A stretch of DNA of 61,605 bases, counting the filler, from an uncultured bacterium (GTDB taxonomy: Bacteria; Hinthialibacterota; Hinthialibacteria; Hinthialibacterales; Hinthialibacteraceae): the NCBI GenBank assembly GCA_964449065.1. It is 20 parts of 20 records of this genome, joined end to end, with 100 filler letters (N's around TTAATTAATTAA, not from the genome) between each part and the next. Parts side by side here need not be neighbours in the genome. Positions count along the whole stretch, not along the records: positions 25,478 to 28,513 come from CAYVAZ010000480.1; 19 more parts are not named here. The stretch is one strand, 5' to 3'. Shown here in pieces: positions 12,837 through 40,309 of this stretch; within the stretch, counting starts at the first letter, position 1; each line of letters starts with the position of its first letter. Made by a program: the position numbers and the translations under genes. Below the pieces are notes generated by a model. That model was not told the origin of the DNA. It did no database searches and saw nothing but the letters and a program-made list of their open reading frames with translations.

Positions 12837-12986
12837 CGGCACCGGCTTGTTGAGGATGAGCCCCATGGCGTGGTCTGGACCGTGGCTGCAGATCAGGATG
12901 ACGGCATGGGAAAATCTGCCATCGCCAATGCCCGGCATGGCGATCAGGAGCTTGCCGCAGAGCGTGCTTTCATCCTCACTGTCCAT
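12837..12986 (-). CDS. YqgE/AlgH family protein, N-terminal fragment
   Basis: [25 protein letters not shown]...AMGLILNKP. Confidence 0.9.
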
Positions 12987-13122
12987 GGATCTTATCGTGC
13001 GGGAAGGGCTGGTTTCGCGCAAGAGCTGATTCCCTCAGGCTTTGGGATGACAGAGAGTGGCGCGCTCGCCGCCGTCGGCCTATGTTCGTGGCATTAACAC
13101 CCATCATGAGGAGACAAGCGCC

Positions 13123-13605
13123 ATGAGCATCAAGGTCGGAGATAAGCTGCCGGACACCACTTTCATGGAGATGACCGGAAACGGACCGGAGCCGCGGACC
13201 ACGGCAGACATCTTTGCCAGAAAGACGGTGGTCTTCTTCGCCGTGCCCGGCGCCTTCACGCCAACCTGCTCGGCCCGCCACCTGCCGGGCTTTGTCGAGA
13301 AAGCCGACGAATTGAAAGCGAAGGGCATCGATGAGATCGTCTGTTCGGCTGTGAATGACGTGTTCGTGATGGACGCCTGGGGCCAGTCGGCCGGAGCGGG
13401 CGATAAGGTGCGCATGCTGGCCGATGGCAATGGCGCGTTTGCGAAGGCGCTCGGGCTGGAACTCGATGCGTCAGGCTTCGGCATGGGCGAACGCTCCCAG
13501 CGCTATTCAATGATCGTCAAGGACGGCGTGGTGAGCGAGCTGAATGTCGAGGATGGCGGCGAGTTCAAGGTGTCGAGCGCCGATTACATGCTGGGGCAGC
13601 TCTAG
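13123..13605 (+). CDS. Peroxiredoxin, Prx5 subfamily
   Basis: VPGAFTPTCSARHLP, VNDVFVM.AW, RSQRYSM; GAGGAG RBS before ATG 13123. Confidence 0.95.
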   Translation: MSIKVGDKLPDTTFMEMTGNGPEPRTTADIFARKTVVFFAVPGAFTPTCSARHLPGFVEKADELKAKGIDEIVCSAVNDVFVMDAWGQSAGAGDKVRMLADGNGAFAKALGLELDASGFGMGERSQRYSMIVKDGVVSELNVEDGGEFKVSSADYMLGQL

Positions 13606-13632
13606 ATTGAGATGCCAAAGCGGAGGCAGACG

Positions 13633-14466
13633 ATGCGTTATTCCGTTTCAACTCTGGCGGTGTTCTTGTCGATGACTGTGCCAGCGGCATCACAAACCGT
13701 TCCGGCGACCGACCTCGTGGCGCCCGAAGGTCCCGTAACAATTCGGCTGGCACCTGATATGGTCAACCGCTGCACCGTAGTTACTAAAGATGATACTGAA
13801 GTCACTGAAGAGACCCATTTCGAAATAACCGAGAAAGTGGGTGACAGGCTACGAATTACGATCGTTCCAGACGCCAACGAGCCCCTTCGCATTCGCGCCG
13901 AATTATCCGGCAACGGCTCGATCGGCAATTTCGAGGCCGCGCCCGATGGTGTGATTTTCGTTGCGGCGGAAGACGCCGACGAAATGTCCATGACGATCGC
14001 CTTGGCGATGAAGGGGGCCTACGAGACCGTGACTGCGGCGCAACGCAGCTTCGAAGTGGGCGATCGGCTTTTCGACTATCCGGGTTATGAACGCGATCTG
14101 GAAGCTGCCATGGTATATGCGGTGCTCGAAGAGGCGCAGGAAGACCCTTCCTTCGAGTTTGAAGCCAGACTGGTCAGCCTGGATGATCGAACTGAATTTG
14201 TGGGGCTTGAAAAGGCGAGCGGAAACTTCGTTTTTTCCGGGAACGCGTCAGCTACGATCAAGATGGGGATCAGGGGCGTTCCTGGTTCGGAAATGAGAGT
14301 CCGGATCGATGTTCAGGGCCGATCTGTGTTTGATCGAAGCAATGGCTTTCTCACGGGCAACATCGTCGATGGGCAGATGGCATTTCTATCCACCGACGAT
14401 GTGGAGCCCTTAGCGTTACCTATACGTGTGACAACCAACTGTGAAATCCATACCGTGCAGTTCTGA
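13633..14466 (+). CDS. Hypothetical exported protein
   Basis: Signal-peptide-like MRYSVSTLAVFLSMTVPAASQ; long ORF. Confidence 0.7.
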   Translation: MRYSVSTLAVFLSMTVPAASQTVPATDLVAPEGPVTIRLAPDMVNRCTVVTKDDTEVTEETHFEITEKVGDRLRITIVPDANEPLRIRAELSGNGSIGNFEAAPDGVIFVAAEDADEMSMTIALAMKGAYETVTAAQRSFEVGDRLFDYPGYERDLEAAMVYAVLEEAQEDPSFEFEARLVSLDDRTEFVGLEKASGNFVFSGNASATIKMGIRGVPGSEMRVRIDVQGRSVFDRSNGFLTGNIVDGQMAFLSTDDVEPLALPIRVTTNCEIHTVQF

Positions 14467-14609
14467 GCTTTTCTGCGCGCCAGATGGAGCAAATCAGGGT
14501 AAACACGTTCCTAGCCGGGGGCGCATTTTCCTTTTTTCGATGATGCTATATTGAAAAACAGAAACCCCCATAAGTGAACAATAGTTCATGAAATAGAAAG
14601 GGGAGACAC

Positions 14610-15578
14610 ATGGACCCACTCATCATTCCGATCATTCTCGTCGTCGTTGGCGTGATCCTTGTCACTTCGGCGCTGAAATTCGTGCCGCAGGGCTTCAACT
14701 ACACCGTTGAACGGTTCGGGCGTTACACCAAGACGCTGTCGCCCGGCATGCATGTCATCGTGCCCGTCATGGACCGTGTGGGGCGGAAAATGAACATGAT
14801 GGAGACGGTGCTCGACATCCCGACCCAGGAGGTCATCACCCGGGACAATGCCCAGGTGTCGTGTGATGCCGTGGTATTCACTCAGGTGATCGACCCGGTT
14901 GCGGCAGCCTATGAGGTCAACAATCTCAATAATGCCATCCAGAATCTGTCGCTCACCAATATCCGTTCCGTGGTGGGTTCGATGGACCTCGACGAGGTGC
15001 TGTCCAACCGCGACGACATCAATGCGCGGCTGTTGCGCATCGTCGATGCCGCCACCAATCCGTGGGGCGTGAAGGTGACCCGGATCGAGATTGCTGACCT
15101 GTCGCCTCCCGCCGACATCACCGAGGCCATGGCCAGGCAGATGAAGGCGGAACGCCTGAAGCGGGCCGAAATCCTGACCGCCGAAGGACAGAAACAGTCC
15201 GCCATTCTCAAGGCTGAGGGTCAGAAGCAATCCCAGATCCTCGAGGCTGAGGGCCGACGCGAAGCGGCCTTCCGCGACGCTGAAGCCCGCGAGCGTGAGG
15301 CCGAAGCCGAGGCCAAGGCGACAGCCTTCGTGTCGGAAGCCATCGCCAAGGGCGACGTGAACGCCATCAATTACTTCCTCGGCCAGCAATATGTGACCGC
15401 GTTCGAGGCGCTGGCGAAGTCGCCAAACGCAAAGACGGTGATCATCCCGGCCGAGTTTTCCTCCATCCTCGGCACGATTGAGGGCATCAAGGGCCTGACC
15501 GAAGGTGCCAAGGCCGCGCGTGATGCAACGACCGCGTCACCGTCCACGGCGGTGCCGCCGGCCGGAAGGCGCGACTGA
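14610..15578 (+). CDS. SPFH/band 7 (QmcA/paraslipin-like) protein
   Basis: VPQG..TVERFGRY, QEVITRDNA, WGVKVTRIEI, QMKAER..RA.IL.AEG. Confidence 0.95.
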   Translation: MDPLIIPIILVVVGVILVTSALKFVPQGFNYTVERFGRYTKTLSPGMHVIVPVMDRVGRKMNMMETVLDIPTQEVITRDNAQVSCDAVVFTQVIDPVAAAYEVNNLNNAIQNLSLTNIRSVVGSMDLDEVLSNRDDINARLLRIVDAATNPWGVKVTRIEIADLSPPADITEAMARQMKAERLKRAEILTAEGQKQSAILKAEGQKQSQILEAEGRREAAFRDAEAREREAEAEAKATAFVSEAIAKGDVNAINYFLGQQYVTAFEALAKSPNAKTVIIPAEFSSILGTIEGIKGLTEGAKAARDATTASPSTAVPPAGRRD

Positions 15579-15651
15579 CGCACCCCTTGCGGCGGCGGGG
15601 TTGGTCCCTCGCCGCCCCTGATTTCATGTCCGGCACAGAAAGGAGTTTTCC

Positions 15652-15918
15652 ATGGCTGCCATTGTTGACTTCCTCACCCCGCTGACGGTCTGGCACTGGG
15701 TGGCGCTTGGCCTTGTGCTGATCGGCATCGAGATGCTGATCGGCACATTCGACCTGCTCTGGATAGGCACGGCCGCCCTCCTGACGGGGCTCTATTCCAG
15801 CGGTCTGATCCCGCTTCCGGCGGCCATGGAGACTTGGCAGGCACAGATCGCCGCCTTTGTTATCCTCGCCATTGTGCTTGTGATTGTCGGACGCACCGCC
15901 TTTGCGGGCCTGCGCAAC
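15652..15918 (+). CDS. NfeD family protein (partial)
   Basis: WHWVALGLVLIGIEML...LLWIG; classic partner downstream of an SPFH gene. Confidence 0.85.
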
Positions 15919-25477: not shown

Positions 25478-25818
25478 ATAGCGGGCCGCGCGGCGCTGCG
25501 AAAATCCTCCAGCGTGCGCTGACGGCCATGGGTGCCGCGGTCGCGGTGGACGGCGTGATCGGTCCGAAAACCATCGCAGCGGCAAAGCTGGTTGAGTCGA
25601 TCGAGCTCGGAAAGGCGATGATCCGCGAACGCCTCGCTCTTTATGACCGGATCGTCGAAAAGCGGCCGGACCAGTCGGTCTTTCTGCAGGGCTGGCGCAA
25701 CCGGACGCTGGACCTTTCGCGGGATGCCAAGCTGGATGATCCTGTCGGGGTGCTCGAGGGACTGGAGACCACCGCCATTCAGCCTGAAAACACCGCCTTT
25801 GCAGAATTCATCGACTGA
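25478..25818 (+). CDS. GH108-type lysozyme C-terminal/peptidoglycan-binding part (5'-truncated)
   Basis: SGP.GA.KILQRAL...VDGVIGPKT...FLQGWRNR; paralogue of the tail of the next gene. Confidence 0.85.
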
Positions 25819-25836
25819 TCCCGGGGGAGACGGGCC

Positions 25837-28299
25837 ATGAGTGTGGATCACATCGCAGATGCCATTGTCGAGCTGTCGCGAACCGATGCCGGGGCGGCCA
25901 TCGAAAAGGCCACCGAATTCACCGATGCGCTTCTCGCTCTGACACCGGCCAGACAGGGCGCAGGCCTCTTCAGCCTGACGAAGCGGCTGCGCAAGGCGCG
26001 TGCGTTCGACGTGCTTGAGGGCGTCTGCGAAACGGTGGAAGCAGCGGGCATCTGGTGGGGCTGGCCGATGAGCCATCACGCCCAGGCCCTGATCGAGCGC
26101 GGGGCCAGCCTTCCGGCCATTGGATTGCTGCAAAAAGCCCGCGAGGCCGCACAGGATGAACGCGACAGCAAGCTTTTCGCCGATGCCTGGGCGCTGGAGG
26201 GGCGCGCCTACAAGGATTTGTTTGTCACGGGCGTTCGGCGTTTCCCGCGACCGGCCCCGACTGTGCTCGAAACCTTCGCGCGCAGGGCCGAAGCCGCCTA
26301 TGGCAAGGCCTACCGCCAGCTTGCCGGTACGCCTGAGGCACATTATCCCGCGATCAACATGCTTGCCATGGGCCGGCTCGCCGAACGCGAGGGCTTCGCG
26401 CTTGAGCCGCTGGACCCGCTGATCGGTCTGGCCGAGGGTGTTGTTGCGGAGGTCAGTGGGCGCAGGTCCAGTGATCCGGGCAATCTGCATGCCTGGGACA
26501 TTGCCTCGGCCGCCGAGGCAGCCGCCTATCTCGGACACTGGGAAGAGGCACGAGATCGCGTCAGGGACTATATCGTGGCGGCGGGCGATGATGCCTTTGC
26601 GCTGGCCGGGACGCTGCGCCAGTTCGATTTGCTCTACGGCGGGATGACGAAGGTACCGCAGGTCGTCGAAGTGCTCGACCATCTAAAATTGGCCCTGATG
26701 AAGGCCGAGGGCGGTTCGGTCCAGCTGACACACAAGCAAACCGCGCGGCTGGTAAGGGCACCGTCCGGCGGCATGTCCATCGGCGATGATGGCGAGCCGG
26801 AACAGTCAACCGATGTCGAGGCTGTGCATGAACGCGTCGCCGATATGGACGCAATGCTTGAAAAGGTCTGGGGGGCTGAGGCCGGCATTTCCCACCGCAA
26901 GCTGCAGGACGTCATGCAGCGCGCCCGCGCGGTCGCCCGGGTGATGATGCAGACAGAGCGGTCGTCACGCCAGACCATCGGCACCGGCTTCCTCATCAGG
27001 GGGGAGCTGGCTTCGGACACGCTCAGGGGCGAGGTTCTGTTCCTGACCAATGCCCATGTGGTCTGCAATGATTATCGGGACGCGCCGGCGCGGGCAGGGG
27101 AGGCCTGGGCCTCGTTCGATGCGTCTCCGCAGCTGGGAGACCTCGAACTTAAAAACCTGCTCTGGTCCTCGCCGCCGGACGAGCATGATGTTTCGATCTT
27201 CAAGGTCAGGGCTTCGGGTCGCAGGGGTCAGCATGTGCGAGAGGTGGCGAACCTCATGGCGCTCGCAAAGGGCCTGCCGCATCTGCACCAGCAGCGCGAT
27301 GGCAAGAAGGTGCCTATAAGAGTTTACGACATCGGCCACCGGGCGGGTGAGGACCTGTCCTATTCCATGCGTGACAATGAGCTGATCGATTTCGAGAATG
27401 TCTATGGTGAGGCGCCCGGCCCGGAACCTCGCCGCATCCATTACCTCGCGCCGAAGGCGCCAGGAAGTGCAGGAAGCCCGGTGTTCAATGCCCGCACGCT
27501 GGAGCTGATTGGCATCCGCCATGCCCGTGGGAACCTGCCGAGGCTGAACGGTGCGGAAGGCAGGTATAATGTCGCAGAGGCGCTGTGGATCAGGCCTCTG
27601 CTCACCGCTTTTGCCGACACGATAGTTGCGCGTCCCCCTGAAAAGTCCGCCGAACGTGATGGACAGCAGAAGCGGTCAGCGGATGCCGGAACCCGCTTCA
27701 CTGTCGCGCTCGATTTCGCGCTGAAATGGCGAGGCGGCTATTCCAACCACCCTGCCGACCGGGGCGGGGCGACCAACCGTGGCATCACGCAGGCGACCTA
27801 TGATGCCTGGCTTGAAGCGCAGGGCGAGGATGTCCGCTCGGTGAAGCTCCTCACCGAGGAGGAAATGCACGCGATCTACCGGGCCAATTACTGGCAGGCG
27901 GCGCGGTGTGATCGATTTGCCCCGAACATCGACTGGCTGATGTTCGACATTGCGGTGAATAGCGGGCCACGCGGCGCTGCGAAAATCCTCCAGCGCGCGC
28001 TGACGGCCAGTGGTGCCGTGGTCGCGGTGGACGGCGTGATCGGTCCGAAAACCATCGCAGCGACAAAGCTGGTAGAGCTGATCGAGCTCGGAAAGGAGAT
28101 GATCCGCGAACGCCTCGCTCTTTATGACCGGATCGTCGCGCAGCGGCCCGACCAGTCGGTCTTTCTGCAGGGCTGGCGCAACCGGACGCTTGACCTTTCG
28201 CGGGCTGCCGAACTGGATGATTCTGATAAAGTGCTTGAGGGACTGGAGACCACCGTCATTCAGCCTGAAGACACAGGCTTTGCAGAATTCATCGACTGA
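25837..28299 (+). CDS. Multidomain protein: TPR-like sensor (TRAFs-binding/TPR-S-like) + trypsin-like peptidase + GH108 lysozyme-like/PG-binding domain
   Basis: GRAYKD, HYPAIN, WDIASAAEA (TPR part); GTGFLI, LTNAHVV, DVSIF, GSAGSPVF (trypsin fold); GGYSNHPADRGGATNRGIT, FDIAVNSG, DGVIGPKT, GWRNR (GH108); GGGAGA RBS. Confidence 0.85.
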   Translation: MSVDHIADAIVELSRTDAGAAIEKATEFTDALLALTPARQGAGLFSLTKRLRKARAFDVLEGVCETVEAAGIWWGWPMSHHAQALIERGASLPAIGLLQKAREAAQDERDSKLFADAWALEGRAYKDLFVTGVRRFPRPAPTVLETFARRAEAAYGKAYRQLAGTPEAHYPAINMLAMGRLAEREGFALEPLDPLIGLAEGVVAEVSGRRSSDPGNLHAWDIASAAEAAAYLGHWEEARDRVRDYIVAAGDDAFALAGTLRQFDLLYGGMTKVPQVVEVLDHLKLALMKAEGGSVQLTHKQTARLVRAPSGGMSIGDDGEPEQSTDVEAVHERVADMDAMLEKVWGAEAGISHRKLQDVMQRARAVARVMMQTERSSRQTIGTGFLIRGELASDTLRGEVLFLTNAHVVCNDYRDAPARAGEAWASFDASPQLGDLELKNLLWSSPPDEHDVSIFKVRASGRRGQHVREVANLMALAKGLPHLHQQRDGKKVPIRVYDIGHRAGEDLSYSMRDNELIDFENVYGEAPGPEPRRIHYLAPKAPGSAGSPVFNARTLELIGIRHARGNLPRLNGAEGRYNVAEALWIRPLLTAFADTIVARPPEKSAERDGQQKRSADAGTRFTVALDFALKWRGGYSNHPADRGGATNRGITQATYDAWLEAQGEDVRSVKLLTEEEMHAIYRANYWQAARCDRFAPNIDWLMFDIAVNSGPRGAAKILQRALTASGAVVAVDGVIGPKTIAATKLVELIELGKEMIRERLALYDRIVAQRPDQSVFLQGWRNRTLDLSRAAELDDSDKVLEGLETTVIQPEDTGFAEFID

Positions 28300-28326
28300 T
28301 CCTTGGGAGACATGCCGTGAGTGTGG
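27959..28326 (+). repeat. Direct repeat of 25478-25846
   Basis: 344 bp ungapped with about 29 mismatches (counted by eye); similarity continues through the RBS and (A/G)TGAGTGTGG. Confidence 0.95.
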
Positions 28327-28702
28327 CTGGTCCTGTCAGGCAAACCGCTTGAAGCACCCTGCTTGACTTCGCCGCCTTAACGGGTGAGCCAATAATTCCG
28401 CTATTTCAAGACTTCGCCCAAGATCATCCGGCTTGCCGATATGATGTATCGTAAGCGTTGTCTGACGACCACCGCTTCGCCGGGTTGTCTCTGTGGCCTG
28501 CATTGCTGATCTTNNNNNNNNNNNNNNNNNNNNNNNNNNNNNNNNNNNNNNNNNNNNTTAATTAATTAANNNNNNNNNNNNNNNNNNNNNNNNNNNNNNN
28601 NNNNNNNNNNNNNCCGTTACATTGCTGAAGTCCGGCTCGCCTAAATCCACCGGCTGGAATTGACTGCCAGTGCCGTAGCCGAGATTCGCGAAGCGGTATG
28701 AG

Positions 28703-34309: not shown

Positions 34310-34813
34310 TCTCACCTCCTTGAAAAATATCAAAACTATAACACTCACACCATCCGAATAAAACCATATAAGGAGTATTTCAACAATGATTTGCGCATAC
34401 TCATTTTGTCGCAATACAAGGCTACCTGCATTTCAATGTTTTAGATTGTTAATACCTATCTGGATCCTTTTCACACACTTTAGAAAAGTCGGTTTCATGA
34501 CCGTACTCAAATAGAATTAGCATAGAAACACCCCATACACACGAATCCAAAAGCAACTTCAATTGGATATACCTGCCAATTGTGTTTCAACAGTTTCGTG
34601 AGCAGCCAACCGGCTGGCATACACCAAGCAGGCTTGAATATCCTCTTTTTCCAACCAGGGGTAACCGGATANNNNNNNNNNNNNNNNNNNNNNNNNNNNN
34701 NNNNNNNNNNNNNNNTTAATTAATTAANNNNNNNNNNNNNNNNNNNNNNNNNNNNNNNNNNNNNNNNNNNNACAACCTCATTGAAGCATTAGACTTGTTC
34801 CCGAACAGTTGAC

Positions 34814-35038
34814 TCATAACGATGCTACCGAAACCACCGGCGAGGGCGAACCCAGATTGGGATCGCGGTTAAGGCGCGAACCGGTGACGATGATCGTCTC
34901 CTTGTCGGCCTCCTCCTCTGTCTCGGTGACTTCCTGCGCATGCGCGGGCGAGGCCATCAGGGCGAGGCCCGATACCGAGAGCAGCGACGCCGCAATCAGC
35001 TTTCCCCGGACCTTTCGGTTATTGGTGTTGTAGTTCAT
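34814..35038 (-). pseudogene. TonB-dependent receptor N-terminus ending in a premature stop near the contig edge
   Basis: Signal ...ASPAHAQ, TonB box ETIIVTGSR, SPSPVVSV then stop. Confidence 0.7.
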
Positions 35039-35816
35039 CGCTACCCCCTGTCTTTTCGTTTGGGTTCCATGTTTTCGTGGTCCCTCTCCCAGGCGGAGCG
35101 ATCTTTGCGTTCGCTTCCATATTATTGTTTTCGTGTAGGTCTTGCCCCTCGGGCGCGCGCAGCGCGGCGCGAAAGGTGCGCTTGACGAGGTAGGGTTCGA
35201 GCACCCTGCCCACCGCGTAGATCAGCGCGAAAATCCCTGCGAGGACATAGGCTGTCTCGGGCGAGTGGCGGCCCTTTACCTCGTCTTCTTCGGCATCCTC
35301 GCGCCCGTCGCCGTCCTTGGCTCGGGAGGCGTCCTTCTCCTCCTCGTCCGCCCCCTTGGGCTCGGGCGCGCCGAGCATCTGGTCGATCCAGTGCAATTCG
35401 ACGGGCTTGTCCTTCTCGGCCTCTTTCTCCGCCTTCTTCTCGGCCTGCTCGGCGGCAAGTGCGGGCTTCTCGATCTCGTTGATGAAGGCGGCCAAGCCTC
35501 CGATGGCCAGAAACAGCAACGGCGCAAGGCAACACAGGAACAGCGCGGTGCTGCCCAACTCCCAGCTCAGCCGGGTGTGGTATTCGCGTTGCTCAACCAG
35601 CAGTGCCCCGCTGGTGAAGGTCGCAAGCTTGTCCTGCGCGGCGGGGTTTTTCTTCTCGTATTCAAGCGCATCGCCATCGACCGAATAATGCGTGCCCTGC
35701 GTTGCGAACAACGGATCGAGCCGGGCAAAGACTTCGTGCGACGGCAGCGGTTCGTCGAGCGCGAGCGAGCCCCTGACGCGCCAGATCCGTTCAACGAGAG
35801 GCAATCGAAGTCTCAT
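35019..35816 (-). CDS. Hypothetical membrane protein
   Basis: Two hydrophobic segments flanking a charged loop; GC-rich coding bias. Confidence 0.7.
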   Translation of the reverse strand: MRLRLPLVERIWRVRGSLALDEPLPSHEVFARLDPLFATQGTHYSVDGDALEYEKKNPAAQDKLATFTSGALLVEQREYHTRLSWELGSTALFLCCLAPLLFLAIGGLAAFINEIEKPALAAEQAEKKAEKEAEKDKPVELHWIDQMLGAPEPKGADEEEKDASRAKDGDGREDAEEDEVKGRHSPETAYVLAGIFALIYAVGRVLEPYLVKRTFRAALRAPEGQDLHENNNMEANAKIAPPGRGTTKTWNPNEKTGGSDELQHQ

Positions 35817-35943
35817 GGTCTGTCTGCGTCTCCTCGAATGGCAAAGCTTCGCCGTCCCCGCCTTGGCGGGTTCAAAAAACTGCCTCTCGCGATAGGCTCC
35901 GGCTTACAGCGGAGCGGTGGAACCAGCCTGTGCTGTTACGCTG

Positions 35944-36948
35944 TTATTCGGCCGGTTCTTGCTGATGTTGAGGCGTGCCGGCCGATTTCATGCGTTCGGA
36001 CGCGGCCTTGTAGGATTTCATCCCTTCGCGGAACGGGAACAGCATGGTCTCCCCAATATCCATCCGGCGTCCGCCATCCATGCCCAGCAATTCGGCTTCG
36101 CCATCAACACAGGTGCCGAAGAGGCGATCCCAGATGATCCAGGTGCCCGAATAATTGCTGCGGGTCGCTTCGTAATCCTGCGAGTGGTGGACGCTATGAT
36201 GCTCCACCGTGTTGAAGATATAGCGCCACCAGGCCGGCGTGTTGAAGCGCACATTGATATGCTGGTAGATCGAAACGGTCATCCCGATCGCCCCTGCCAG
36301 CAGGAAGGCGCGCGGCAGGAAGTCAAAGAAACCGCCCACACCCAGCCCGATCAGGAACAGCTCGATCGGATTGCCGACCGCGCCCTTGTTGATGTTCAAC
36401 TGAGTAATGTAGTGGTGCGGCGCGTGGGTCAGCCACAGCGGATACCAATTGTGCATCCCGCGATGCATCCAGTATTGCCCGAAATCGAAGATCATCGAGA
36501 TCAGCAGCGCCTGCAACAGCAGCGGGAGGCCGGTGAACCAACTGAAATCGCTCCACTGGAACGCGCCCTGGATCGCCTCGACGATGACGCCGTCGCCGAT
36601 ATATTGATCGACCATGCGCAGGATCGTGTACCCCAGCGCCACGTAGAACACGTCGGTCGCAAATTCCTTCCAGGTCAGCTTCCAGCTGTCATAGCGCGGG
36701 TTGACCCATTCGAGCCCCAGCAGCAGAGCCTTGAAACACAGACCGATGATGAACGCGGTTGAGGCGACCGCCAGATCGTTGGGCGCCCAGTAGAAGAACG
36801 CGATCATCGAAAACAGGAAAAACGGCTGGAAATAGGTGAACACGAATTGCTTGATCGGGCCGCCCTCGACCTTGCCGATGTTTTCCCACCCGACAGTGAC
36901 GGGCGCATCCGCCCCGATAATCCGATTTCCTACCTGCACGCCAGCCAT
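35944..36948 (-). CDS. Sterol desaturase/fatty acid hydroxylase family protein
   Basis: His boxes YWMHRGMH, HAPHH, HIN, HHSVHH; NYS..WIIWDRLFGT. Confidence 0.93.
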   Translation of the reverse strand: MAGVQVGNRIIGADAPVTVGWENIGKVEGGPIKQFVFTYFQPFFLFSMIAFFYWAPNDLAVASTAFIIGLCFKALLLGLEWVNPRYDSWKLTWKEFATDVFYVALGYTILRMVDQYIGDGVIVEAIQGAFQWSDFSWFTGLPLLLQALLISMIFDFGQYWMHRGMHNWYPLWLTHAPHHYITQLNINKGAVGNPIELFLIGLGVGGFFDFLPRAFLLAGAIGMTVSIYQHINVRFNTPAWWRYIFNTVEHHSVHHSQDYEATRSNYSGTWIIWDRLFGTCVDGEAELLGMDGGRRMDIGETMLFPFREGMKSYKAASERMKSAGTPQHQQEPAE

Positions 36949-37171
36949 GGTGTTCACCCCTGTTTGGTAGGCCATGAGCCCGAGATATAACGGCGCACCA
37001 ACCGGCGAACCCGGTTCGTGCATCTTTCCTCTCTCCCGTGCGCTTTGTTTATCGCTCTGTGACAAGGCGTATCGATATTAACGAGAGCGTCAAGTGTAAC
37101 ATTACTCCCTGGGGACAAGGTGCAAATTTTTTGTTGCAGTTTTGACGCAGTCGCGCAATTTTATTACTCAA

Positions 37172-37712
37172 TCACACACTATCGATATAGGCGCGCCACC
37201 CGCCCAGTTCCGAAATGTCTGTAGCGCCACGGGTCGCGCGCGGTTCGGCGACGAAGCCTTTGACGCTTGAACCGTCCGCAAGCGTCACCGTGCCGATTGC
37301 CAGCGGCGCGGGAACCTCGGCGGTGAAGCTGCCGAATTCGGCCATGCCAAGCTCGTAAACCTCGACCTTGATCGCCACGCCATCCTCGGCGTGAACCAGC
37401 GCAGGCTTGGGCGGCACGCTGTCGGCCATGGCATACAGGCGATAGGTCGGCGCGGTTTCGAACGCGCCCACGAAGGCGGCGTTGCGCGAGGTCAATTGCC
37501 AGTGCAGCGGCATATCTTTCAGATGCGCGCCAACCACGGCGAGTTTTACAGTGTCCATTCTTCCCTCCCAATCGAGCGGTGGCAGCGCGGGCAATTGCGC
37601 CGTGTCGAGATAGCTCTGGCCTGCATCAAGCAGCGCGTGATCGCTGTGCGCCGGGCCGATCAGCGTGATGCCAAAGCCCGTCGCGTTTTCGCGCGCGCCC
37701 GCCGGAACTGCG
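37172..37712 (-). CDS. atzF: Allophanate hydrolase, C-terminal part
   Basis: Frame open to the contig edge: AVPAG..FGITLIGPA..D then LAVVGAHL..MPLHWQL, PAPLAIGTVTLADG..VKGF, GGWRAY. Confidence 0.9.
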
Positions 37713-39446: not shown

Positions 39447-39618
39447 AAGATTTTTCCTGCAAACCCAACAAAGGCAGATAAAAGTTGCCTTTGCCACCCG
39501 CCACTGATATGAATCTTGGCGGCTTTCGTTATAAAACAAGATTAAATGATTATACATAGCCATTTCCAAATTTTATACTATAATACTAAGTATTATAAAG
39601 AATTTCAGGATTGATTTG

Positions 39619-39993
39619 TTGAGAATCTTCAAAACAAAACCGTTTTTGCAGTTTATGAAACAAGAGAAGATGGATGACTTAACTCTTGTGGAAGCAGTGA
39701 AACAAATTGAGAAAGGCTTAATCGATGCAGATTTGGGAAGCGGAGTTATAAAACAGAGAATTGCCCGTCCGGGAGAAGGAAAATCCGGTGGATACCGCAC
39801 AATTTTGTTGTACAGAGCAAAACATAGAGTATTCTTTGTATATGGATTTGCGAAAAATGAACGCAGCAACATTGGTCAAAAAGAATTAAAAGCATTCAAA
39901 AAATTGGCAGCACTCATGTTGCACTATTCAGATTTGGAGTTGGCAAAGGCAGTAAAAAGTAAAGAATTATTTGAGGTAAAGCATCATGAGTAA
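39619..39993 (+). CDS. Type II TA toxin, RelE/ParE (HigB-like) family
   Basis: GLIDADLGSGVIKQRIARPGEGKSGGYR...FVYGFAKNERSNI. Confidence 0.93.
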   Translation: MRIFKTKPFLQFMKQEKMDDLTLVEAVKQIEKGLIDADLGSGVIKQRIARPGEGKSGGYRTILLYRAKHRVFFVYGFAKNERSNIGQKELKAFKKLAALMLHYSDLELAKAVKSKELFEVKHHE

Positions 39994-40309
39994 AGCAAAA
40001 ACCTATCCCAGCAAAGTGATGGGAGCGATTCACGAAACCGCATCCGGTCTGCACAAAACCGGTATTATGGATAAACAAACCATGCGTGAATTCGATGAAT
40101 TATGCCTGACACCAATTCTGCCTCTTTCTGCCGATGATATTTGTGAAATTCGCAATCGTGAGTGTATGAGCCAAGCGGTGTTTGCCCGTTATCTGAATGT
40201 CACGACAGGTTTGGTCAGTCAATGGGAACGTGGAGTAAAGTGTCCCTCCGGAGCATCATTGAAATTATTAAACATTGTAAAAAATAAAGGAATAGAAGCC
40301 ATTTTATAA
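39986..40309 (+). CDS. HTH antitoxin (HigA-like, Xre family)
   Basis: IHETASGL...TMREFD..CL, SQAVFARYLNVT..LVSQWERG.K.PSG.SLKLL. Confidence 0.93.
   Translation: MSKAKTYPSKVMGAIHETASGLHKTGIMDKQTMREFDELCLTPILPLSADDICEIRNRECMSQAVFARYLNVTTGLVSQWERGVKCPSGASLKLLNIVKNKGIEAIL

Follow-up and report, generated by a model that had tools for sequence, protein, structure and literature searches.

A TPR-S/trypsin/GH108 fusion with a key catalytic residue replaced in each enzyme domain: a possible brake or decoy in a predicted module of protease and protease-activated lysozyme

Does a bacterial gene that joins a TPR-S sensor, a trypsin-like protease and a GH108 lysozyme in a single chain encode an active sensor-protease with lytic output, as an earlier note on this DNA had proposed, or could such a chain have been kept for another purpose? 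The gene in question, an open reading frame (ORF) at positions 25837-28299 (+) of a 61,605-nucleotide (nt) window from the assembly GCA_964449065.1 of an uncultured Hinthialibacteraceae bacterium, encodes P0001, a fusion protein of 820 amino acids (aa), and is open throughout. Because the window is a chain of unrelated contigs of about 3 kb joined by N spacers, genes outside 25478-28513, the 3036-bp contig of P0001 (hereafter C480), are not its true neighbours. Our tentative answer, to which we give somewhat less than an even chance, is that P0001 is a fusion without both catalytic residues that likely arose when part of the locus was duplicated in tandem. Selection has likely retained it, no longer as an enzyme, to serve as brake or decoy in a predicted defence module whose lysozyme is activated by a protease.

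Domains and lost catalytic residues of the fusion

All three modules were found in the ORF above their Pfam cut-offs, namely TPR-S (PF20308; aa 79-178, positions 26071-26370 (+), 29.1 bits with a gathering cut-off of 27.6), Trypsin_2 (aa 382-560, 41.3 bits) and Glyco_hydro_108 (aa 626-710, 97.4 bits), the last followed by PG_binding_3 (aa 714-783, 45.6 bits). The TPR-S match is part of a longer helical stretch (about aa 1-305) that is conserved, and homologues of P0001 also match MAP3K_TRAF_bd, in agreement with the TPR-S/DUF4071-type N-terminus suggested earlier; the GRxYKD, YPxIN, W..A..AEA, MLEKV and VLEGLE motifs are likewise present as claimed. Ahead of the protease, an LE/KVWG motif (26857-26874 (+), aa 341-346; the slash marks the predicted cut) represents a predicted zymogen or processing site, the Glu of which is nearly invariant across family B, i.e., the TPR-S plus trypsin proteins. 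It is followed by the trypsin-fold pseudo-protease (26869-27618 (+), about aa 345-594), by the junction and linker leading from the B-derived to the A-derived part (27619-27681 (+)), by the pseudo-GH108 and PG_binding_3 domains (27712-28185 (+)) and by a C-terminal tail (28231-28296 (+)) with LE/G and LE/T motifs and the conserved end peptide of the lysozyme family A. The protein was also said to lack a signal peptide; no hydrophobic stretch was seen close to its N-terminus, where the Kyte-Doolittle mean over 19 residues reaches 0.68 at best, while no signal-peptide predictor was run.

Upstream of P0001, the contig carries the 3' end of a gene A (25478-25818 (+)), which is truncated at the contig edge so that only its last 112 codons, comprising the GH108 end, PG_binding_3 and the conserved tail, are present. 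This remnant is 60% identical to the family-A protein P0007. The spacer to P0001 (25819-25836 (+)) indeed measures 18 nt and contains a purine-rich ribosome-binding site, and the tails of gene A and P0001 share 87% protein and 91% DNA identity, as the earlier remark on a neighbour with the same lysozyme-like tail had implied.

Compared with 121 homologous trypsin domains, in which 50 columns are conserved in at least 80%, P0001 deviates at 8/50 conserved columns (P502R, T540K, S545A, H561R, G564R, A579V, N580A, and G582A) and carries the further change I498D. By motif, T540K corresponds to Thr190, S545A to Ser195, H561R to His213 and G564R to Gly216. Of the His57-Asp102-Ser195 triad, H407 and D451 are kept and the serine is replaced by alanine, and instead of the Thr/Ser190 and His213 of a Glu-specific S1 pocket P0001 has K540 and R561. 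These residues are almost invariant in the homologues (P502 in 120/121, T540 and S545 each in 119/121, H561 in 121/121), with Ala at Ser195 in just two others, P0062 and P0156. Both are TPR-S trypsins with a TCAH motif, ParA/MinD-fused in the case of P0062, and they appear to represent another pseudo-protease lineage, distinct from that of P0001. In the intact family Thr190 and His213 are retained, and its profile matches the SplA/SplB/V8 glutamyl endopeptidases (best E 1e-6), whereas P0001 differs from these enzymes as a cytoplasmic, TPR-S-linked protein with a destroyed pocket. In a review (PMC5508998), the S1 pocket is assigned to regions 189-192, 214-216 and 224-228, and His213Arg is described to abolish processing in two Glu-specific proteases.

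The lysozyme part shows a comparable loss. The catalytic Glu of GH108, kept in 55/55 homologues, is R632 in P0001. R632, D641, and T646 align with Glu17, Asp26 and Thr31 of SagA, whose Glu17 is named as the catalytic Glu (PMC8334348); D641 and T646 are kept, leaving the Glu, Asp and Thr set of an active GH108 muramidase incomplete. Since Ser195, Thr190, His213 and the GH108 Glu are all replaced, P0001 is no ordinary active sensor-protease-lysozyme and the active enzyme proposed at the outset has to be given up; judged by its residues, P0001 is a double pseudoenzyme, with both enzymes predicted to be disabled.

The replacements can hardly be an error of one assembly, because contigs from two runs (X1 and X2) match with 0 differences. 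A 1076-nt contig of X1 is identical over 27478-28513, across the fusion junction, H561R and E632R, and X2 is identical over 27375-27647 (T540K, S545A) and 25795-25946 (A-B border). Both runs belong to one study and are perhaps the source of the bin itself, and among the pieces listed none covers the whole gene.

Origin of the fusion and selection on it

How did a lysozyme come to follow the protease? A tandem direct repeat connects the two ends of the locus, its first copy at 25478-25846 and its second at 27959-28326 (+), spaced by 2481 bp and 91% identical, and it runs across the stop codon and the ribosome-binding site into gene B, of which it takes in the first 10 nt. Among the relatives, the closest five (P0002-P0006, 55-84% identical) have TPR-S and trypsin only, and in a quick tree of 58 rows the GH108 domain of P0001 clusters with the family-A proteins P0007, P0021 and P0023, apart from the natural fusions (Shimodaira-Hasegawa-like approximate likelihood ratio test 99). 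The second copy of B is interrupted by a segment at 28329-28513 (+), a degenerate IS6-family remnant with a transposase-like frame at 28396-28461, of which we take the left end to be IS6-like. It gave 8 weak plasmid matches (best E 0.03), four of them annotated as IS6 transposase, and no match in NCBIfam or by blastn. The simplest history is likely that an A-B pair underwent tandem duplication to A - B+GH108 - B', followed by an IS insertion in B'. Both enzymes occur together in 16/186 collected proteins, 15 of which are GH108-first (including two near-duplicates) and only P0001 GH108-last, and when 8000 candidates were searched with a focus on the junction, no further GH108-last fusion turned up. 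The earlier worry about a one-off architecture is hence borne out for the domain order of P0001, whereas the A-B order is recurrent.

For a lineage test, P0002 (84% identical, intact active site) served as sister and P0003-P0006 as outgroups. In the P0001 lineage, 9/68 invariant sites were altered in the protease C-lobe vs. 5/192 elsewhere, the latter conservatively (Fisher p=0.002); the TPR-S region showed two changes, both conservative, at 112 invariant sites. The changes gather in the pocket, where 10/23 sites differ in P0001 and 0/23 in P0002, in segments partly picked after inspection of the data; a strict pocket set (190-195 plus 213-216) gave 6/10 changed sites (p=0.0009). Outside the pocket P0001 and P0002 are much alike, with 5 vs. 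4 changes at 233 invariant and 28 vs. 23 at 296 variable sites, and of the non-pocket sites in the C-lobe of P0001 only 1/74 changed. Because this non-pocket conservation equals that of the nearest relative with an intact active site, P0001 appears to be a maintained pseudoenzyme rather than a product of random decay, and the substitution pattern indicates purifying selection outside the pocket. Consistently, of 2000 simulated neutral ORFs only 0.55% survived a divergence of 0.07 substitutions per site, and neutral decay outside the pocket was rejected at all distances tried (0.07-0.20). Whether the pocket evolved faster than neutral hinges on the assumed lineage distance (p=0.0008 at 0.07, 0.08 at 0.14 and 0.37 at 0.20), so that positive selection on the pocket is a possibility.

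The parent module in relatives

In relatives, genes of families A and B form a pair with intact active sites, often fused with GH108 first. In family-A proteins (about 610-630 aa), an unnamed N-domain precedes GH108, PG_binding_3 and then the conserved tail, whereas family-B proteins consist of TPR-S and a Glu-type trypsin. At the locus L002, A and B were seen directly as adjacent genes, 17 nt apart, and are followed by an FGE-sulfatase, a TIR-iSTAND gene (iSTAND match 22.2 bits, below the cut-off of 24) and a MoxR-type (AAA_5) ATPase; the contig ends before any vWA. Upstream of A, a 431-aa gene (L002:565-1860) without Pfam match corresponds to a PADLOC TIR effector model (E 5.8e-9) and is a candidate signal generator; by eye we take it to resemble DRHyd plus Macro, labels that stem from no database match. 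P0003/P0023 and P0004/P0007 each come from contigs of equal length, which suggests further A-B pairs, not seen side by side. TIR genes are also carried by L007, with none on the 3-kb C480. TIR, iSTAND/MoxR and STAND genes beside the pair thus agree with the conflict-system setting envisaged in the earlier note, seen here in relatives.

TPR-S is combined with trypsin in 103/164 retrieved proteins as well as in several Atlas clusters of TPR-S plus Trypsin_2, and the 164 proteins include fusions of the types N-GH108-(TPR-S)-trypsin (11), GH108-TPR-S-trypsin (4) and N-TPR-S-trypsin (3). In Sinorhizobium, pK101b carries a run of a GH108 gene, an alpha/beta hydrolase, TPR-S-trypsin and TIR-nSTAND1, and two further Rhizobiaceae loci have the hydrolase and B only. 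The gene of about 313 aa preceding B in Rhizobiaceae was considered as a C2-like domain and rejected, being an alpha/beta hydrolase. Scans yielded one weak partial locus in genome contigs and two loci in metagenomes; of 301 genomes of an unrelated phylum, 13 had matches, to a partial domain only.

The N-domain of family A was modelled as a beta-sandwich with inserted helices (predicted local distance difference test 81.7) and had no Foldseek match at E<=0.001. It matches unnamed Atlas clusters, the nearest with 671 members. In 27 N-domain proteins, [FYLHN]ES motifs occurred 62 times vs. 21.6 +/- 4.4 in 500 shuffles, an about three-fold excess among proteins that are related to each other and hence do not give independent counts; DS, QS and reversed-motif controls showed no enrichment. 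These sites lie where acidic linkers give way to alanine-rich segments of cationic character with predicted helices, with an upstream/downstream charge of -2.6 / +1.8 vs. -0.6 / -1.0 (n=36 vs. 612). Such an arrangement suggests cleavage of A by B behind Glu, which would release membrane-active helices together with the lysozyme. The proposal of Glu-type cleavage at the LE motifs accordingly fares well at the family level, as a prediction from the Glu-type family profile, the xE/S enrichment and the acidic and basic flanks.

TPR-S sensor-effectors were reportedly described by Burroughs and Aravind in 2020 from nucleotide-activated conflict systems. P0001 is like these in that TPR-S is fused to an enzyme effector and unlike them in that its trypsin is dead and followed by a dead GH108. 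With the trypsin-HamM pairs of Hachiman/AVAST and the Canu pairs, as presented by Tuck et al. (2025; PMC12799240), the parent A-B module shares a trypsin-like protease beside a predicted gated pro-enzyme, conserved cut sites and mobility between defence contexts, and the adjacency in L002, the 15 GH108-first fusions and the xES enrichment all fit a protease-effector pairing with conserved cut motifs. However, its effector is a muramidase with a C2-like pro-domain instead of a nuclease and its predicted cuts lie after Glu, not Ile; the main text of that study mentions lysozyme 0 times. The placement in L002 beside TIR-iSTAND and MoxR-type ATPase further recalls the iSTAND/MoxR/vWA ternary systems (Kaur et al., 2020; PMC7159879), from which A-B differs as a separate accessory pair unfused to vWA or iSTAND, and no ternary genes lie on C480, which is too short for a comparison of whole loci. 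The same work interprets inactive trypsins among the effectors as dominant-negative or as binders of peptides and gives a lysozyme effector for NucA/EAD1 systems; a search of two of its supplements gave 0 matches. Finally, the family-A model has the same fold (Z 21.0, root mean square deviation 2.2 over 164 residues) and the same domain pair as SagA (7dnp), TtsA and phage endolysins (phrog_315), whereas P0001 differs by its Glu to Arg exchange, by the absence of a holin on C480 and by a score of 74 with NF040573, for which the cut-off is 240.

No description of a TPR-S/trypsin/GH108 module, nor of a link between TPR-S proteins and a C2-like/GH108 partner, was found in the papers searched, including Kaur 2021 (PMC8195603) and a 2026 ParA preprint; the TPR-S paper and the source data of Kaur 2020 lay outside this coverage, so that a prior mention is possible. 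The A-B module is apparently undescribed, as the earlier note had supposed for the fusion architecture.

Several further arrangements were observed among the relatives. In L010 (5136-8597), a CHAT(caspase)-TPR-S gene precedes a GH108 gene with a tail of the type seen in L007, but with a basic Lys/Arg motif instead of Glu behind the lysozyme; this one example could reflect a switch of the cut site with the protease class. A recurrent pair of alpha/beta hydrolase and trypsin is found on Rhizobiaceae plasmids at L007:10900-13512 (there of the TPR-S type), L008:8258-10765 and L009:8267-10789, and in P0035 the two are fused, giving another candidate protease-activated effector. In the P0093 cluster (30 members), N-domain, TPR-S and trypsin are followed by a GH24-type lysozyme, and in P0073 by a PG-binding tail instead; by their architectures, wall-directed domains appear to have been recruited more than once.

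Competing explanations and the setting of the contig

In the mechanism that we tentatively favour, infection would be perceived by the TPR-S of protein B through a signal, probably a nucleotide that TIR/DRHyd-type enzymes encoded nearby produce, and the Glu-type trypsin would thereby be activated to cut its partner A at xE/S. This would set free the GH108 lysozyme and, from the C2-like domain, amphipathic helices of cationic character, which would get to the wall and cause lysis of the infected cell. A duplication of the unit A tail - spacer - B would have produced the fused copy, before the IS6-like element cut B', with a lysozyme lacking its pro-domain; both active sites would have been lost and folds, sensor and LE motifs kept. 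Since it keeps these, the fused copy would compete for signal, partner or protease, in analogy to cFLIP, which acts as competitor for caspase-8. The inactive effector trypsins of Kaur et al. (2020) and the TPR-S trypsins P0062 and P0156 with Ala at Ser195 are precedents in favour of such a role. Of the earlier suggestion of abortive lysis or decoy, the decoy half is in line with this, while the actively lytic half fails for P0001 with the loss of both active sites and may hold for the parent pair. A bolder version, which seems unlikely to us, credits Hyphomonadaceae and other bacteria with a "holin-endolysin" suicide cassette of their own that is triggered by a protease. Here, the TPR-S-gated Glu-protease would cut the C2-like pro-protein at acidic xE/S sites and unmask its membrane-active cationic helices and a GH108 lysozyme, and P0001 would be a natural cFLIP-like pseudo-protease/pseudo-lysozyme, evolved by duplication, that regulates or baits the cassette. 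Should the brake or decoy reading be true, it would add a wall-lytic effector class to protease-activated bacterial immunity, for which the closest work describes nuclease effectors, and would assign a role and predicted cut sites to the unnamed C2-like family. P0001 would then show the birth of a pseudoenzyme regulator as it happens, with one duplication, two active sites knocked out and the folds retained.

Several points weigh against this reading. No active B copy is visible, as just 10 nt of the second copy precede the cut and there is no other match in the genome bin G000 (the true host genome is unassembled here), and the fusion is known from one lineage only. The two tail copies (112 codons) differ by 0.14 synonymous (dS) and 0.07 nonsynonymous (dN) substitutions per site, and a dN/dS of about 0.5 therefore suggests that constraint on the lysozyme tail is loose. 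His213Arg and Gly216Arg more likely block Glu binding than tighten it, which weakens a version of P0001 as substrate trap. The C2-like fold of the N-domain is a lead only, because the C2 domains (Z 6.4-6.9) sit among generic helical matches up to Z 8.3, and the pocket comparison suffers from its partly post hoc segments. Furthermore, PADLOC (2023 library), one of the checks proposed earlier, returned no convincing system model, with a weak PDC-S45 match for P0001 (E 0.003) and weak generic protease matches for its relatives.

The strongest competitor, which we regard as rather improbable on balance but by no means negligible, is a defused relic: a lysozyme without pro-domain beside its own activating protease would have been toxic, missense mutations would have disarmed both sites, and the gene would now be functionless and not yet eroded. 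The solitary domain order, the loose tail and the IS6-like remnant in the second B copy all suit this view, and function would certainly be gone if the insertion removed the only active B. The rate of change in the pocket also fits plain relaxation at a lineage distance of about 0.14 or more. On the other hand, deletions and frameshifts should offer a far larger mutational target than active-site missense changes, yet the ORF is intact and conserved outside the pocket like a relative with intact sites, down to the single change in the non-pocket C-lobe. If P0001 is only a relic, its value lies in the parent A-B module to which it points.

It is more doubtful that P0001 is a repurposed receptor, both pockets of which were remade by positive selection with basic residues for an acidic ligand (for example, a peptide of a phage, an inhibitor or part of the wall), to serve as bait or sensor. 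The basic residues K540, R561, R564, R502 and R632 would suit such a ligand, with D498 as possible internal counter-charge; several of the changes require at least two nucleotide substitutions, and the rate of change in the pocket exceeded that of variable sites elsewhere (10/23 vs. 38/296, p=0.0006) and, at lineage distances up to 0.10, the neutral rate (p<=0.01). This excess is gone at distances of 0.14-0.20. An assembly chimera, in which an active B gene was joined to a degenerate paralogue, would agree with relatives of about 88-93% identity in the same samples, with the outlier status of C480 in its bin and with the lack of a listed contig spanning the whole stretch, but is very improbable given the exact matches of X1, across the junction, and X2 and the open frame. 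That sensor-protease and lysozyme are both active in one chain, for which the presence of all domains and the natural precedent of the P0093 cluster could be cited, is hardly credible with four key residues replaced.

With regard to its origin, C480 has a guanine-cytosine (GC) content of 63% in a genome that in bulk has 44-50%, and ranks 5th among 138 small contigs by tetranucleotide distance from the genome mean. Family-B matches were absent from the relatives of G000 (0/30), and the named homologues of P0001 belong to Hyphomonas/Hyphomonadaceae and to Rhizobiaceae plasmids. Taken together, these features indicate that C480 is probably a binned contaminant from an alphaproteobacterium, so that P0001 has only 3 kb of true context, on which Rfam gave 0 matches.

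Further high-GC contigs lie at positions 12837-15918 and 34772-37712 of the window, and C100, C117, C193, C299, C311 and C451 of G000 are of the same kind. In total, 18 contigs above 55% GC (110 kb) are compositional outliers, probably from the same or other contaminating organisms; C117 carries, by eye, Cas9- and Cas1-like genes. Two further TPR-S matches in the bin are located at C305:3666-3902 and C55:1211-1495. On an unrelated contig of the window (39616-40309), a RelE/HigB-like gene and a helix-turn-helix gene lie in tandem and resemble, by eye, a toxin-antitoxin pair.

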